From positions 1,054,001 to 1,118,000 of the forward strand of contig CDPCPM010000370.1 of NCBI GenBank assembly GCA_976551045.1: a stretch of 64,000 nucleotides of DNA. The letters run 5' to 3'. The notes below the pieces were generated by a model. That model had not been told where the DNA came from. It searched no databases and saw only the letters and a list, made by a program, of their open reading frames with translations. The position numbers and the translations under genes were made by a program. How positions within the stretch are numbered: the first letter of the stretch is position 1; each line of letters opens with the position of its first letter. This document shows positions 10,461-63,776 of the stretch, piece by piece. The stretch is from Glaucostegus cemiculus. Lineage: Eukaryota.

Positions 10461-10978
10461 GGTCTCAGGGCGCAGTAATACACCGCCGAGTCTGCCAGCT
10501 TGGCGCCAGAAACAGTCAGCGGGACGGTTCCCTTCGATTCGTCGAGAGCGGCTGAGAATCGCGTCCCTTCTTTGCTCCCCTTCTTCTCGCTGTATCTGCT
10601 TTTATGGACTAGGAACTCCAAGGCACCGTTGTGATATTGACGGTACCAGAACAGGTCTGGATCGGTAGTGCTTGTAGCTGTAAAATTACAGTGCAACTGT
10701 ACATCATCTTCCTCGCTCGCTGTGGCTGCCGACGGCGTCTGTGAAACAGAGTCTCCCCGAGAGTGTCCTGCAAAAGCCAGAACGAGAAGATAAAAGCAAT
10801 CTAATGTCACAATGTCTAAATCCCACAATCGGCTCCTCACCCATTGTTCTTCCAATACTCGGTGAGCTATCAGCTAAAATATGACGCCTGATATGATTGC
10901 GAACCAGAGTGTTTTGCAACTGGTGGACTCACCGATTAAGAAAGTTACTGCTGTGAGAAATAAATAAACAATGAACAT
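10461..10978 (-). CDS. T-cell receptor alpha/delta variable segment (leader exon 10978-10933, V exon 10767-10461)
   Basis: Leader MFIVYLFLTAVTFLIG with GT donor, then TTTTGCAG acceptor. The V exon reads HSRGDSVSQ...LHCNF...WYRQY...LADSAVYYCALRP with canonical Cys/Trp/Cys, and is followed by a 23-RSS. Confidence 0.92.
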
Positions 10979-36379: not shown

Positions 36380-36861
36380 ATGAAAATCTTTATGTTTTTC
36401 ACCATATGTATCTGTATACGGCGTGAGTACCGTCCATACACTCCCACACTACGCGAGTTTAATTGACATCTCCTTGAACCATATCAAATTTCAAACACTG
36501 ACCGGGATTCAGCAGCGTTGCGTGGTTAAGCTCTGACGCCTAATCACCTCTTTTTGTGTTTAATTTGCAGGCTCCTTCAGTCAGTCGGTGACCCAGAGTC
36601 CGCCAGCTATTAACGGGATGGAGTGTCAGTCTGTCACCATCACCTGCCGTTTCCATCCTGGTAGCAGTGGTACATACCGTTTTCAAACTGGACGGTTCCT
36701 CAGGCAGACCCAGCCCGGGTCAGAGCGGCAGCAGATCACCAGCGGAGGACGGTTTATTGCAAGGATCAGAAAAAATGAGATGACTTTCTCGTTAGAAATT
36801 CGGGATCTGAGAGTTGAAGACAGCGCCACCTATTACTGTCAAGCTGAGTATAGGTGGAAAT
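36380..36861 (+). CDS. NAR-TCR V segment 1 (leader 36380-36422, V exon 36571-36861)
   Basis: Leader MKIFMFFTICICIR with GT-AG phase-1 intron. QSVTQSP...ECQSVTITC...ITSGGRFI...FSLEIRDLRVEDSATYYCQA resembles IgNAR V, with a short C'-C'' region (no CDR2) and an extra FR1 Cys. Confidence 0.88.
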
Positions 36862-36899
36862 CACAGTGATGGACCTGGGCTTTCTGCGGTACAAAAACT
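36862..36899 (+). other. RSS of NAR-TCR V1 (22-bp spacer)
   Basis: CACAGTG, 22 bp, ACAAAAACT. Confidence 0.92.
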
Positions 36900-37254: not shown

Positions 37255-37269
37255 GACGATTGGAATGCA
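37255..37269 (+). other. NAR-TCR D segment 1 (15 bp, 12/12-type RSS)
   Basis: 5' CACTGTG (37248-54) with a weak GGGATTTGA nonamer 12-13 bp upstream. 3' CACAGTG, 12 bp, ACAAAATAA (37270-37297). Confidence 0.85.
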
Positions 37270-37673: not shown

Positions 37674-37733
37674 ACTATGAATGGACTGCTCATAATAAGG
37701 ACGGAGAAGGAACGACTGTGACCGTCAAGGCCG
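37674..37733 (+). CDS. NAR-TCR J segment 1
   Basis: RSS GGTTCTTGT, 23 bp, CAGTGTG (37635-37673). Encodes YEWTAHNKDGEGTTVTVKA (IgNAR-like xGxGT motif) with a G|GTAAG phase-1 donor. Confidence 0.9.
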
Positions 37734-39116: not shown

Positions 39117-39419
39117 ATTCCATTTCCCCGGGCAGACAGAGTCCTGCTCTACAATCTTCTGCTGGTGAAACCGTCACATTAATCTGCGAATATTCCGGGT
39201 TCTGTCCATATACGGTCCACTGGTATCGGCAGTTCCCAGGACAAGCACCGATTTTCCTGCTTCAGAGACACACTTCAGGAGAGCAGGATACGGAAAAGGC
39301 AGCGGGAGGACGAATTTCTGCGTCTCTTGATCCTGGCAAGAAAATCAGCCAGTTAACGATCTCCAAGGTGAAACCGAGTGACGCTGCTGTGTATCATTGT
39401 GCACTGACTTCGCGCACAG
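39117..39419 (+). CDS. NAR-TCR supporting TCR-delta V segment 1
   Basis: CTCCAG acceptor is in phase with J1. DSISP...TLICEYSGFCPYTVHWYRQFPG...DAAVYHCALTS has an extra CDR1 Cys. RSS CACACTG, 23 bp, TCAATAACC at 39420-39458. Confidence 0.9.
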
Positions 39420-39480
39420 CACACTGATACCAACCATGGAGAGAGCTATTCAATAACCCCAGTGTGGTTTCCTACAAGCA

Positions 39481-39519
39481 CACAGTGCTACAGTGCAGTG
39501 GGAGAGCTGTACAAAAACT
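39481..39519 (+). other. second 23-RSS behind supporting V1
   Basis: CACAGTG, 23 bp, ACAAAAACT. Confidence 0.85.
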
Positions 39520-41149
39520 CATCTGCTGGATCATAAACATACAGTACTGCAGAAGACGGAGCACACCGTCAAAAATAAACGTCAGTGCGTGGGGTCTTTG
39601 CAATGTAGAAGAGGTAGAGACAACATAAACAAACATTGTCTTAAAGTCACATATTGACACGAAAAGAACGACGACACATATTCCACACTGATTAGATATG
39701 CACAATTGCCTTCATTAATGTCGTGTTTGACTGTAGATCCGCGCTCTGTAAGTCATCTTCCAGCCAGATAAATACAACTGAGTTGCAGAGACCTGTGTCA
39801 CTTGTGAACAGCGCCAGGAAATCGGCGCAGAGCAAGCTCCCAGACATAGTCATGTTAGAATGCCCAGATAATAAGTTTCAATATTGTCAATTGAAAGTCT
39901 CAGAAAATTCGCTGTGTCACGGTGGTATCCGTGTCCTTGTCCGGACCACTATGGGATCAGAGAGAGTCTCAGTGCGACTTGATTCCATAGAGAATGATTA
40001 ATATGAACATCTTCTCGCTCAGCCGTAAGTGATTTAAATCAAAAATTCTAATCATTACTTCTGTGTCTTTCCCTTCCGAGGATCATTGTTCACTAAACCT
40101 TCGCTCTTTTGCTGACATACAACTTGCTGTTATTTGGTATTTTCATTAACTTCGGTATGATAGAACAGGAGTCAATGCTGCTGACTGGGATAGCCGTTGT
40201 GAATGGAACATTGGTTGCTGGATTTTTTCAAGGGCCTATTTTTATTCCAGACGGTATGAATGATAGAAACTGCACTCCCTCACTGCCCTTCTTCGTTCCA
40301 CTGCACAACCGTGAAGGAACTTCTTTGGGCTGGGATCCCCTGAATTCCACTGAAGGAGGATACTTTTACAAGAAATTCCAGACTTTGTTCATTAGACAGT
40401 GAAAGAAGTTTCTTACTTTTTATTATATAAAATTTTCATTTCATTTGTTGGAACGTTAATTTATTTCAGGTATCTGTCCTGTTGAAATAAATGTACCTGT
40501 ACCTCTTAATGACTCAAAACAATTTAAAAACTATATCTTACCACTACGAAAAACGGCATGCATCCATTCGAGAGACACGGCACTTCATCAGACGCATAAC
40601 CGAACTTCAACCACACACTTTTACGTTAAACTATTTTATTTTCATCCAGATAACCACGAACTCCTCTTTGATTCTTCCACTCACTGACAGACTGAGAGTA
40701 AAATTGCAAAGTCAAAGGTACATTAAGCTGATATTGCGACATTTTGCGAATTCTAATTGTTATATTATTCAGTGCGTTCATTTTAAAATTTAATCTTGAA
40801 TCAATTTCCAACATGCAACTTCCCCTGAATATTGGAGATATTCAGAATATGTTGAAAAAGCTTTCCATATTTGATAGTAGAGGGACTGCTGCCCTAATCA
40901 TTGCCTCCAGTTGAAGGTTCACACTGCTGAGGCTTCGCTCTCCACCATCTGGTGTCTCCCGGTTCCGAACGATTTTGCTGTTGCTCTGATTCCGCCGCCA
41001 ACTAGTGCGGCCAGATGGGACGACTTCAACTCCAGTGATGACGGGCAGAAAGCCAGACAACACACAAACATTGGACAACGTGTCCACGAAGGGCGATTTA
41101 TACACATCCCACAGTATCCAATTTTATTCTGCATATATTCAAATCAACC

Positions 41150-47957: not shown

Positions 47958-48260
47958 ATTCCCTTTCGCCGGGGATTCAGAGTCCTGCTCTACAATCTTC
48001 TGCTGGTGAAACCGTCACTTTAAACTGCGAATATTCCGGGTTATGTCCACACACCGTACTCTGGTATCGGCAGTTCCCAGGGAAAGCACCGATTTTTCTG
48101 CTGCAGAGAAACAGCTCAGGAGAGCAGGATACGGAAATGGCAGCAGGAGGACGAACTTCTGCGTCTCTTGATCCTGCCAAGACGATCAGTCAGTTAACGA
48201 TCTCTAAGGTGAAACCGGGCGACGCAGCTGTGTATCACTCTGCACTGACTTCGGGCACAG
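47958..48260 (+). pseudogene. supporting TCR-delta V segment 2, probably non-functional
   Basis: Open frame, but VYHSAL (TCT) replaces the canonical second Cys. RSS CACACTG, 23 bp, TGCATAACC. The second RSS heptamer is decayed. Confidence 0.8.
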
Positions 48261-51200
48261 CACACTGATACCAACCATGGAGAGACATGTTGCATAACCC
48301 GAGGGTAGTTTCCTACAGGCATATGGTGCTATAGAGCAGGGGGAGAGCTGTACAAAAACTCAAATTGTTGGATTATAAACATACACTACTACGGAGCACG
48401 GAGCAAACTGTCAAAAGAAACCCTCAGAGCCGTGGGGATCTTGGGACAGCGTGAACGCAGATGTAGAGTACAAAATTACACCACACTGGGTCTTAAAGTC
48501 ACATATTGACAAGAATAATAGAAAGGTAATACACATAATCCACACCCATGAATTCCCCTATTCAGAAGTGCGCAATCGCCTTCATTAATTTAGCGTTTTA
48601 CTGTATATCAGCGCGCTGCAATAATCTACCAGCCAGATAGATGCAACTAAATTGCAGATACCTGTGTCTCATGTGAACAGCAGCAGGAAATCTGCGTCCA
48701 GTAAGTTGCCGGACACAGTCTTGTTCGAATGCCAAGAAAATAATTGCCAATTGTGTCAATTGAAAGTTACGTATTCGGCAACACGTCCCAGAAAAGTCGC
48801 CGTGTGATGATCGTATCCGTGTCCTTGTCTGTACCACGATTAGGTTAGAGGGAGTCTCAGTGCAAATAAACACCACAGAGAAGGATTAACCTGAGCTCAG
48901 CCGAAAGTGATTCAGATCAAAATTCCAGACGGACTGTGTCTTTCGCATTCGTGAATCTTTGTTTACTAAACCATCGCTCCTTTGATGACATACAGCCTGC
49001 AATTATTCGGTATTTTGATTAACTGCATGATAGTGCAACAGCCGTCAATCGAGTTGACTGGGATAGCCGCTGCGAAGGGAACTTCAATTGCTCCATTTTT
49101 CTGGGACCTGCTCTTAATCCAACCGGTATGAATGATAGAAACTGCACTCCTTCTCTCTCCTCATCGCTCGACTGTACACCCTTGAAGGATCCTGATTGTG
49201 CTGCGATCTCCTGACATTCGACTGAAGGAGGATTCTTTTCAGGGGAATTCCCGACTCTGTACATCAAACAGTGAAATTAATTGGTCCCGTCTTGTTATAT
49301 TGAAGATTTATTTCATTTCTAGGAGGGTTAATGTATTTCTGGTAATTTGCCTGTTTATGTAAACGTACTTGTAGATCTTAATGCCTCAAAGCAATGTACA
49401 AACTTCCAGGTATATCTTGACACGATGAAAACAGGCATGCATCCATGAGAGAGATACAACACTTAATCAGACACACAATAGACCATCAACCGCATACTTT
49501 TACGGTAAGATATTTTATTTGCCCGAATCTCACAACCTCCCCTTTGATTCTACCCCTCACTTGAATACTGGGAGTTAAATTGCAAAGTCAAAGGCAATTA
49601 AACTCGTATTTCGACACACTGTGAACTATAAGTGTTATATTATTCAGGTCATTAATTCTTAAATAATTTTCTTGAAGCAATTTTCAACAAGTAACTTACC
49701 CTGATTTTGGGATATTAAGAATGTATTTAAAAACTTCCCAAATTTGATAGGAGACGGAGTGCTGCCGGAATCTTTGCCTCTACTTGAAGCTTCTCGGGGC
49801 GCGAGTCTTTAGGCGTCTGCCACTGCTGCGGTTTCGCTCCAAGTCATCTGACGTCTCCCGATTCTGAAAGATTTTGCTGTTTCAATGATTCCGAAGCACA
49901 CCAGTCCGGCCAATGTAACTAATTCAACTCCAGTGGTGATGGCCAGAGTTCCAAACAGCACAAAAATATTCGACAACCGTGTCGGCTATTGGCGATCCAG
50001 ACACATACCATATTATCCAATTTTATTCTAGACATAACCACATCAAACGCGCCATTCCTAGATCTTACCCTTCAATTGCACACAGGGAATAAATAATATA
50101 CAACTAATTTACCAATCCACAAGTCTTTGGCATGCGGAAAAATCCGGAGCACCCGGGAAAAGACGCAAGATCGCGCGAATAACACATCGAATGGTCTAAG
50201 TACATGATATTTTTCTCTGTCGCAGACTCTCACACAAGGCCTCAGATTAATTTGTCGTTGTTTCCCATTTCCTGATATGGTGGATTTTGGACAATTCTTT
50301 CCAGAAAGCATCCATCTGACTTCTAAGCTGCTTGTTTTTATTGACTTGGTTCATCGCAGAACTAAGTAAATGTCGGGAGAAATTTCTTCCTACTGTGAAC
50401 GAACGTGTTGCTCAAAAAAAAAACGCACGCAAGAGAAAATAAAACGGTATTTTTCTTTGCAATGACAACCATGTAAACCATGCAGGTTCGGAATGCAACC
50501 ATGTGAATCAACCAAAGGAAGTCAAATATTATTTCAGTGTATTTCATTTATCCAAATGCAGACATGCAGACATCAAGCAATTACAATCAGATTTTAAGTG
50601 AACAATTTGCCATGTTCTGGCCTTATTTTTCAGTTCTGCTCACTGCAATATGAAATGGAAAATGATTTCCATTCTTCTGTCCTTTCCTAATATCAATTCC
50701 AAAAGTAGCCATTGAGTAGAATAGTATCCTGATAGTTCTCTTTGTTCATTCTTTTTCATTTGTAATGCGTCATATTTTTTTTTGAATAAACCTTTAGTTG
50801 AAATTAAAGTGGAGCCAGATAAAAGTTACAGGTACACATAAGGTTACCAAAGTGGATTTCAAGATGGGGCAAAGTTGAGGTTCAAGTAATTCAGGTGCAT
50901 ATTCTTCATGGTGTTCACTGAATTTCAACAGTCCAAATCATCCAGAGAATAAACAGACGTGAGTCGCAGGAAGAACGTGTCGCCTTCTGCAGCCTTTACG
51001 AGGGAGGGTTTGCAATGCACTTCAATAATATCCTCTCTACCAGAGTTAGATAGAAGAATGATAACAACTCCTAATCTCGTTCTGCTACCCTAAATGGAGA
51101 GAGGAGAATTGTCTTGCCCAATATGATACGCTGTATGGCCCTTTCAGAAGTGAGGATGTAACAACCTGGTCTCCAACTCTGCAATTGGCTTTTCATGCGA

Positions 51201-56925: not shown

Positions 56926-57228
56926 ATTCCATTTCCCCTGGCATTCAGAGCCCTGCTCTACAAACTTCTGATGGCGAAACCGTCACTTTAAGCTGTGAAT
57001 ATTCCGGTTTCTGTCCATATACAGTACACTGGTATCGGCAGTTCCCAGGGCAAGCACCGATTTTTCTGCTTCAGAGACACACTTCAGGAGAGCAGGATAC
57101 AGAAAAGGCTGCGGGTGGACGAATTTCTGCGTCTCTTGATCCTGGCCAGAAAATCATCCAGTTAACGATCTCCCAAGTGAAACCAAACGACGCGGCTGTG
57201 TATCACTGTGCACTGACTTCACGCACAG
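56926..57228 (+). CDS. NAR-TCR supporting TCR-delta V segment 3
   Basis: CTGCAG acceptor. Open frame DSISPGIQSPALQTSDGETVTLSCEYSGFCPYTVHWYRQ...VYHCALTS. RSS CACATTG, 23 bp, TCAATAACC (57229-57267). Second RSS CACGGTG, 23 bp, ACAAAAACT (57290-57328). Confidence 0.9.
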
Positions 57229-60200
57229 CACATTGATACCAACCATGGAGAGAGCTGTTCAATAACCCCAGTGTGGTTTCCTGCAGACACACGGTGCAAC
57301 AGATCAGGGGGAGAGCTGTACAAAAACTCATATGTTGGATCATAAACATACGCTACTACGGAGCACGGAGCCCACTGTCAAAAATAAACCTCAGTGCGGT
57401 GGGGATCTTTGCAATGTAGAAGAGGTAGAAAGAGAGTACAACATTAAAACACATTGGATCTTAAAGTCATAAATTGACACGAAAAAGGAAAAGGGAAAAA
57501 CAATATTCCACACCAATCAATTCCCCAATCAGAAATGCACAATCGCCTTCATTAATTTCGCGTTTGGTTGTACATCCGTGAGCTGCAAGTCAACTTCCAG
57601 CCAGATACATACAACTGAATTACAGATACCTGTGTCACGTGTGAACAGCGGGAGGAGATGTGCGTGCAGTTGGTTCCCGGACACAGTCATTTTAGAATGC
57701 CCAGATAATAAGTGCCAATCTTGTCAACTGTAAGTTACATATTCAGCAACACGTCCCAGAAAAGTCGCCGTGTGACGGTCGTATCCGTGTCCATGTCTAA
57801 TCTAATCGTTGGAGGGAGTCTCAGAGCGATTTCACACCATAGGGAAGTATTAACCTGAGAATGTTACCGCTCAGCCGAACGTGATTCAGATCAAAAATTC
57901 TCAACGTTATGTGTCTTTTGCAATCATGAATCATTACTCACTAAAGCATCGCTCCTTTGTTGACATGAACTCTACAATTATGTGGTATTTTCATTAACTT
58001 CAGGATAATACAACAGCAGTGAATGGAGTTGACTGGGATAGCCATTGTGAATGGAACATTGATCTTTCCAGGACCTGCTCTTATTCTAGACGGTATGAAT
58101 GACAGAAACTGTACTCCCGCGCTGCCCTCTTTCGCTCGACTGTGCACCCGTGAAGGAAGATGGTTGAGCTGAGATCTCCTGACATCCCGCTGAAGGAGGA
58201 TTCTTTTCAAGGGGAATGCACGACTCTATGCATTAGATGTTGAAAATAATTTGTTACTTTTTATTATATTGAGGGTTTATTTCATTTCTTGGAGCGTGAG
58301 TGTATGTCAGGTAATTTGCCTGTTTAAATAAATTAATTGTACATCTTAGCATCTCAAAACAATTTAAAAAGTCCAGGTATATCTAAACTCGAATGAAAAG
58401 ATGTATGCATCCATAGAAGAGATAGAGCACTTAATCAGAGGGATAATCGACCTTCCACCACATACTTTTACACTAAAATATTTTATTTGCCCCACAAACC
58501 CAGGTTCTCCCCTTGGATTCTACCACTCACTTGCATACTGGGAGTTAAGTTCCAAAGGCAAAGGCCAGCTAGCGTTTTATTTCCACATACTGCGATCTAT
58601 GAGTATTATATTATTCAGTTCATTAATTTTTAAATTCTTTTCTTGAAGCAATTTTAACTTGTAACTTTCCCTGATTATTTGGAATTTAAGAAGACCTTGA
58701 AAAACTTCCCAAATTTGATAGGAGACGGAGTGCTGTCCGAATCCTTGTCTCTCTTGCAGGTTCTCTGGGCATTCGGGGCGAGAGCTTTCAGGGCTCTGCC
58801 ACTGTTGAGACTTCGCTCCACATCATCTGATGTCTCGCGGTTCCGAAAGATTTTGCTGTTTCTCTGATTCCGACACAAACTAATGCGGCCAATGTAACTA
58901 ATTCATCTCCAGTGGTGATGGCCAGAGAGCCAAACAGCACAGAAACATTGGACATCCATGTCCGTGATGGCGATCTACACTCATCCCACATCATCCAATT
59001 TTATTCTCCACATAGACACATCAACTACACCTATCCCAGATTTTGCCATTCACTTGCACGCAGGGAACAATTAACATTTAACTAATTTTCCAATCCACAA
59101 GTCTTTGGCATGTGGAAGAAATGCGGAAAAACCGGGAAAAAGACACTAGATCGCGCGAGGAACATATCGAAGGGTTTGGCTCCATGCTCTTTTTCTCTGT
59201 CGCACAGAGTCTCACACAAGGCCTCAAAGTAATTTGTCGTTGTTTCGCATTTCCTAACATGGTGGATTTTGGACGATTCTTTCCAGAAAACATCCATTTG
59301 ACTTCTCAGCTGGTTTTTATTTCCTTGGTTCATCGCAGAACTATGTAAATGTCTGGAGTAATCTCTTCCTGCTGTGAACGAACGTGTTGTCCAAACAACG
59401 CACGCAAGAGAAAATAAAAAAAAAATGCTATTTCTCTTTGCCGTGATAACCATGTAAACCATGCAGGTTGGGAATGCAACCATGTGAATGAACACAAAGG
59501 AAGTCAAATTTTGTTTCAGTGTATTTCATTCATGCAAATGCAAACATGCAGCCATCAAGCAATTACAATCAGATTTAATGTGAACAATTTACCATGTTCT
59601 GGTGTTGTTTTTTTTCCAGTTCTGCTCACTGCGATCTGAATTGGAATATAATTTCCATTCTTCCGCCCTTTCCCGACTACAATTCCAGAAGTAGCCATTG
59701 AGCTGAATAATCCCCTGATAGTTCTCTTTGATCACTCTTTTTCATTTGTCATTTATAATGCGTCATATTTTTTGAATAAATATTTTGTTCAAATTTAAGT
59801 GGAGCTCGATAAAAGTTACACGTATGCGTGTGTTTCCCAAAGTGGTTTTCAAGATGGGGCAAAGTTGAGGTTCATGTGCAAATTGTTCAGGGTGTTCACG
59901 GAATTTCAATGGTCCAGCTCATCCTGAGAATTAAGACGCGTGAGCCGTAGGAAGAACGTGTCGCCTTGTGCAGCCTGTACGAGGGAGGGTTTACAATACA
60001 CTCAAATCAGGCCCTCTCTCCCAGTGTGAGATAGAAGTTGATAACAACTCCTAATCTCGTTCTGCTGCGTTGAATGGAGAGAGGCGAGTTATCTTGCGCA
60101 ATATGATACCCTGCATTGGCCCTTTCAGAAGTGAGGATGTAACAGCCTGGTCACCAACGCTGCCATCGGCTTTTCATGCGAGGTGAATTGTCAGCTCTTC

Positions 60201-63399: not shown

Positions 63400-63776
63400 C
63401 ACTGTGATGGACCTGGGCTTTCTGCGGTACAAAGACTCCGACTGAAGATCATCCCAACGACAGATGAAGGAGAGAAATTAATCTGCAACTGAAAATTATG
63501 ATCCCGCGTCATCCCGTCAACCTTGCAGTTTAGTGTGTGAGATGATTGGATTGGTGACGTTCACACTGCAGAGTGTGCGCGGATGGCGCAGCGTTTCCTG
63601 AGACTCATGTTAATGTGCTGCGATAGGGAATGAATGAGCCACTTTTCTGCTTCCCAAGTCCAGATGAAATCAGGTTTCAACGGACGTAACAAGAAACCGC
63701 AATCGTTGAGATCTTACCTTCTGTCAGCCCATCTCACCAAGTCTCCAGGGATTAGAAACTGACATGTCACACTGTG

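Follow-up and report, generated by a model that had tools for sequence, protein, structure and literature searches.

Cassettes in the window and the RSSs behind their supporting V segments

The window, i.e. the whole 64,000-nucleotide stretch of Glaucostegus cemiculus DNA analysed here (G000:C370:1054001-1118000), contains four NAR V-D-J cassettes on the plus strand. The supporting V lies inside the window for three of them; that of the fourth (L005) is located just past the window end and carries two RSSs there too. The features needed below are as follows (window positions).

36576..36899, plus strand: NAR V of cassette 1 with a single RSS of 22-bp spacer (36862-36899); no tandem copy of this RSS
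37255..37269, plus strand: NAR D of cassette 1, flanked on both sides by a complete RSS
37674..37733, plus strand: NAR J of cassette 1, preceded by a 23-RSS and followed by a splice donor
39117..39419, plus strand: supporting V delta exon of cassette 1; splice acceptor at its start; CDR1 cysteine
39420..39458, plus strand: RSS1 (unit 1, proximal 23-RSS), CACACTG-23-TCAATAACC; weaker nonamer; in-frame TGA at 39425-39427
39459..39480, plus strand: linker of unit 1, 22 bp; CAGTGTG at 39460-39466, RUNX-type hexamer at 39463-68, 14-mer at 39467-39480
39481..39519, plus strand: RSS2 (unit 2, distal 23-RSS), CACAGTG-23-ACAAAAACT; near consensus
39541..39582 (end approximate), plus strand: unit 3, a decayed RSS copy, used as an internal neutral control
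47958..48360, plus strand: supporting V pseudogene of cassette 2; decayed RSS1 (48261) and decayed RSS2 (48322)
56926..57328, plus strand: supporting V of cassette 3; RSS1 at 57229-57267 and RSS2 at 57290-57328, both intact
63400..63437, plus strand: RSS of the NAR V of cassette 4, whose supporting V is L005, outside the window

The hallmarks of a NAR-TCR supporting V are the lack of its own leader and a cysteine in CDR1. The supporting V segments of the window carry this extra CDR1 cysteine, and each is immediately preceded by a NAR V-D-J in the same orientation. The exon of cassette 1 starts with a splice acceptor at 39117, and homologous gene models pass from NAR J directly into such a V. 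Genome-wide, the family has 27 members, and a NAR V was found 1-4 kb upstream of 26 of them; the top named protein matches belong to Pristis pectinata and reach 90% identity. Judged by their sequence, these genes are NAR-TCR supporting V delta segments. In sharks, the NAR-TCR is a NAR V-D-J plus a supporting V delta (Criscitiello et al. 2006, as cited in passages of PMC12227049, PMC3457774 and PMC5931798), and the loci described here resemble it in cassette anatomy, in the apparently leaderless V with a CDR1 cysteine and in their position at the TCR alpha/delta locus.

The minus strand of the contig bears a constant exon near 198 kb. Two D and five J segments follow on the same strand within 211-230 kb, and the 100-160 kb stretch contains a further 50 J segments. 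By position, the constant exon is taken to be C delta, the D segments D delta, the five J segments J delta and the other 50 J alpha. This puts 12-RSSs of both D, of the five J delta and of the 50 J alpha segments downstream. Given the orientation of the RSSs and the location of D and J on the minus strand, the cassettes of the window would join by inversion. A conventional V on the minus strand (window 10463-10762), in the orientation opposite to that of the NAR cassettes, carries one RSS. The spacer is 22 bp in all four NAR V RSSs (window 36862, 45649, 54736, 63400), and in each of them it is closed by a RUNX-type hexamer, TGCGGT, abutting the nonamer.

The double RSS belongs to a tandem array

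Cassettes 1 and 3 were found to carry the double 23-RSS with the coordinates and motifs that the sequence-only reading had given. Its description of cassette 2 as pseudogenised, with both extra heptamers decayed, also holds; the second V cysteine of this V is changed to Ser. In cassette 1 the coding end of V is 39419. With its CAC heptamer, 23-bp spacer and A-rich nonamer, RSS2 is by sequence a 23-RSS, and that the distal RSS is nearer to consensus was borne out with a matrix built on 30 conventional RSSs, in which RSS2 outscores RSS1 in the window clade (18-28 versus 9-17). The stop codon expected after distal use is the TGA inside RSS1. A third, decayed unit beginning at 39541 had been overlooked.

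It can be seen from the whole family that the feature is a repeat, the unit of which is about 61 bp long and comprises heptamer, 23-bp spacer, nonamer and 22-bp linker. A second copy of the RSS region follows 23 of the 27 supporting V segments with a period of 59-63 bp; all 23 copies score 42-68, where the 99th percentile of the null is 27, and the RSS2 spacer is exactly 23 bp in 20 of them. A third copy is present in 14 of these 23, and L023 has four units, so that copy number ranges from 1 to 4. The earlier statement that each supporting V is doubled is right for all three in the window; genome-wide, the second unit occurs in 23/27 and is usable as an RSS in 13/27. No second usable RSS was found behind any of 72 distinct conventional V segments (32 + 40, drawn from roughly 120 or more matches); in the window, the RSSs of NAR V and NAR J were checked for a tandem copy and are single. 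A strict double-RSS pattern matched nine places in the 2.85-Gb genome, every one directly behind a supporting V, and the reversed pattern, used as a control, matched none; the double RSS is therefore not due to chance. An earlier, stricter version of the pattern had found just two loci.

In a tree of units, units 1 and 2 form separate groups, with bootstrap values of 88-94 on the dividing branches, and units of the same cassette are no more alike than units of different cassettes (p=0.12). Homogenisation between units is thus unsupported, and the persistence of RSS2 is not explained by copying from RSS1. The separate groups also imply that the duplication is older than the spread of the cassettes. 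The suggestion of a simple RSS duplication was therefore correct as to origin, but the duplication is not local or simple, since it is an old, family-wide array in which RSS2 bears a signature of selection. The tests on 23 genes leave out L016, L020, L025 and L026, in which a full second unit did not align, and the test of unit 3 leaves out nine further supporting V segments without a third unit. In L016 (G000:C370 about 692640) RSS2 has been overwritten by a CA microsatellite; the heptamer lost there is apparently kept in a similar contig end of organism A, a related species represented by one sample, and in Pristis model P0021. L026 (G000:C370:2211958-2212245), a divergent supporting V preceded by a NAR V, has one RSS and no array, possibly the state before duplication.

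The 14-mer between the two RSSs is a repeat linker

The 14-mer had been proposed to be a private D delta-like segment, with the inverted heptamer on its 5' side and a 3' 23-RSS, that would add bases to CDR3. The layout resembles 12-D-23 of TCR delta D segments in that a short stretch is followed by a 23-RSS (here RSS2), and 8 of the 27 paralogs have an inverted CAC heptamer that deviates at no more than one position. However, the complete 5' 12-RSS of a D segment is missing: no nonamer lies at 12 or 23 bp from the inverted heptamer in any of the 27 supporting V segments, whereas the true D delta segments of the locus have full RSSs on both sides. Nor is the 5' heptamer conserved, as it has accumulated 3.86 changes per site versus 3.80 in the rest of the linker (p=0.59), and it is altered at two positions in all contigs of organism A that cover it. 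The same motif recurs after later nonamers of the array, i.e. it belongs to the repeat unit. Three of three cDNA-type junctions, from other species and available at protein level only, contain no read-through of the linker. It is almost certain that the feature is a tandem array of the unit of about 61 bp and that the 14-mer, its linker, is not a D; the D-like reading was rejected, and we give it hardly any credence.

Conservation of the RSS2 signals

Changes per site were counted on the V exon tree. Among the 23 paralogs with unit 2, the RSS2 signal has undergone 2.31 changes per site, versus 3.39 in its own spacer (p=0.03) and 3.60 in spacer plus linker (p=0.005); on the same tree RSS1 has 1.69 and the intron 5.0. 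The 14 three-unit cassettes allow the comparison to be made within the array. There the unit 2 signal has 1.06 changes per site versus 2.12 at non-signal positions (p=0.003), while unit 3 has 2.50 versus 2.09 (p=0.88). The signals of the two units differ (2.50 versus 1.06, p=0.0009) at equal divergence of their non-signal positions (p=0.94). These site-wise tests assume independent columns, five of the 14 three-unit cassettes are pseudogenes and the alignment of unit 3 is gapped. Since the signals of unit 2 have been kept and those of the equally diverged unit 3 have not, RSS2 is probably under selection in part of the supporting V family.

That the decay in the pseudogene of cassette 2 hints at selection is a weak argument taken alone: with intact and broken genes labelled by eye, RSS2 is usable in 12 of 21 intact genes (11 without L014, where it is usable via a shifted heptamer only) versus 1 of 6 broken genes (p=0.16). 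RSS2 is also dispensable, because it is dead or absent in 9 of the 21 intact genes. A trend of strong RSS2 with weak RSS1 (rho -0.53, p=0.014) falls to r -0.23 (p=0.35) after correction for relatedness, so compensation between the two RSSs is not significant. Usable RSS2 showed no link with inversion (7/13 inverted versus 5/8 other genes).

The array in other elasmobranchs

The sequence-only reading had proposed to look for the double RSS in other shark, ray and chimaera genomes. Gene models that read through past the V end translate the unit in a sawfish and in three shark genera; as this evidence is at protein level, the underlying unit DNA is deduced. Model P0082, on a 1-kb contig, has five units in exact 61-nt steps, each above the 99th percentile of shuffled sequences and compatible with consensus heptamer and nonamer; its V is without the CDR1 cysteine. 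In Rhincodon P0073, two units score, with a distance of 61 nt between them. Tails running into a second unit were recognised by eye in Pristis P0019 and P0021, Pristiophorus P0032, Hemiscyllium P0066, P0068 and P0025, and Stegostoma P0035; some of these units are decayed, and they fall below the threshold or are too short to score. Among the 20 tails scanned, five have no unit above threshold. The 61-nt period thus recurs at protein level, but the unit 2 heptamer is incompatible with consensus in several shark models. In organism A, contigs span both RSSs and the CAC of RSS2 is without a listed change; the RSS2 nonamer was excluded from these counts, being too close to the aligned contig ends. 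Scans of metagenomes for shark DNA gave no matches.

A possible two-step join and its alternatives

Of the 12 genes with usable RSS2, 11 have a stop between it and V. With this stop in the retained RSS1, the distal join would be sterile, and RSS2 is normally no route to a chain. Since heptamer, spacer length and nonamer of RSS2 have been kept together, RAG presumably cleaves it. Under the two-step use, RAG would cut RSS2 and join it first to D/J delta. This join, by inversion for the cassettes of the window, would move the apparently leaderless V, together with its NAR cassette, over as much as 2 Mb to D/J delta. The joint would then have RSS1 61 bp on its upstream side, directed at the 12-RSSs that are left, those of D delta 2, other J delta and J alpha segments. 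A short-range recombination between RSS1 and one of these would delete the stop and give the productive join. The earlier two-step idea fits this anatomy and is the best model available, to be held tentatively; that RSS2 joins first and docks the cassette, and that RSS1 then makes the productive join, may be the case, at somewhat less than even chances. It is somewhat less likely still that the sterile join also holds the allele unproductive during NAR V-D-J assembly, as an ordering device older than the shark-ray split.

In homologous cDNA-type proteins the supporting V is joined to D/J delta. All three cDNA-type junctions lie at the V end, i.e. at RSS1. Their CDR3s are of 14, 19 and 23 aa, not shorter than those of five conventional junctions (15-20 aa), which speaks against the loss of D predicted by the two-step join, though the relatives of these genes have a decayed unit 2. 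The frame is open through RSS1 in L013, L014, L017, L018 and L019, where a distal join could lengthen CDR3 by about 20 aa; RSS2 is decayed or mis-spaced in all five, and Pristis P0019 has the same open frame as L014.

An unlikely, though not negligible, explanation is that RSS2 is a neutral relic of an old slippage duplication that spread with the cassettes and is now decaying. Copy number varies from 1 to 4, RSS2 is dead or lost in the intact genes counted above, unit 3 is decayed, some parts of the spacer are conserved as well as the signals, and the unit 2 heptamer is incompatible with consensus in shark models such as P0035, P0036 and P0025. Neutral decay does not readily account for unit 2 signals that outlast unit 3 signals of the same age, with homogenisation unavailable as an explanation, nor for an exact 61-nt period in both sharks and rays. 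We also consider it unlikely that the array is a platform for loading RAG, in which extra RSSs and the RUNX-type hexamer raise local RAG at a promoterless V, RSS1 joins in one step and cuts at RSS2 are rare or wasted. The better conservation of the unit 2 nonamer than of its heptamer (0.67 versus 1.57 changes per site) and the five-unit array of P0082 would suit this platform, and TGYGGT stands 4 bp past the unit nonamer, occurring within 260 bp in 20/27 supporting V segments, 9/32 conventional V segments and 44/216 background windows. In the available part of PMC4144731, RUNX1 at the same hexamer consensus deposits RAG1 on the human D delta 2 23-RSS, likewise a TCR delta 23-RSS; there, however, the hexamer spans heptamer and coding flank, and here the putative site comes after the nonamer. 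Moreover, the hexamer derives from one ancestral unit and is equally common in broken genes (5/6), and the CAC and the 23-bp spacing have been kept too, although neither would be required for loading alone.

If RSS2 simply rivalled RSS1, dead-end joins would cap the yield of NAR-TCR chains per cassette. Such throttling would agree with the higher scores of RSS2 in the window clade and with RSS2 being unusable in four of five intact genes whose frame is open through RSS1 (about two independent events). It is nevertheless improbable, as a distal join need not be terminal when RSS1 survives and partners remain downstream, and a weaker RSS1 would be a simpler throttle. Still less probable is an alternative exon start, in which, after a join at RSS2, NAR J would splice to an acceptor that closes the 14-mer and give a NAR-TCR chain without the supporting V. 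The linker of L001-L005 does end in AG after 11-13 pyrimidines in 17 bases (true acceptors have 11-15), but this is confined to that one clade: AG is missing in L010, L012, L023 and L024, which have a clearly usable RSS2, the pyrimidine tract varies in organism A, and no such protein is among the matches listed in the protein searches.

Relation to known systems

The shark NAR-TCR is described, in the accessible passages of the sources, as undergoing two independent rearrangements, without mention of an extra RSS. VH replacement (PMC3526766, in the part available) is alike in that a signal remaining in the rearranged gene permits a second RAG event. It differs in using a cryptic heptamer embedded in V, where we find a complete 23-RSS outside the V exon and facing downstream; the defining heptamer, which sits in the coding end of V and serves an upstream V, is lacking here, both RSSs being outside the exon. 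Under the proposed two-step use, moreover, the same V would be kept, the D/J side replaced and the first join sterile. TCR mu of marsupials and platypus is likewise a three-domain chain whose supporting V has a special assembly, but the solution there is a germline-joined V or loss of D, and the pertinent passages of PMC3457774 do not mention an RSS array. An extra RSS behind V also goes unmentioned in the available parts of PMC12227049, PMC3457774, PMC5931798, PMC3964593 and PMC10322711. A literature search for tandem RSSs behind V, carried out on titles and abstracts, returned none describing such an arrangement; the primary NAR-TCR papers fell outside its scope and may hold an earlier mention. 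The anatomy of the array is thus apparently undescribed.

A NAR-TCR requires two in-frame rearrangements on one allele, and the RSS array of the supporting V offers a handle on their coordination. If RSS2 is used, this would be a type of V(D)J assembly into which a sterile intermediate is built. Even if it is not, the array matters for annotation, because the top-scoring RSS behind a supporting V is often the wrong one.

The 12/23 rule would also allow the 23-RSS of a supporting V to pair with the NAR D 12-RSS of its own cassette (37270 and 39420), which would lead to a destructive inversion, or with that of the next cassette (39420 and 46039), which would yield a chain with extra V domains. 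In L018 the first canonical V cysteine is replaced by Trp, as it is in the Scyliorhinus supporting V models P0023, P0024 and P0027.
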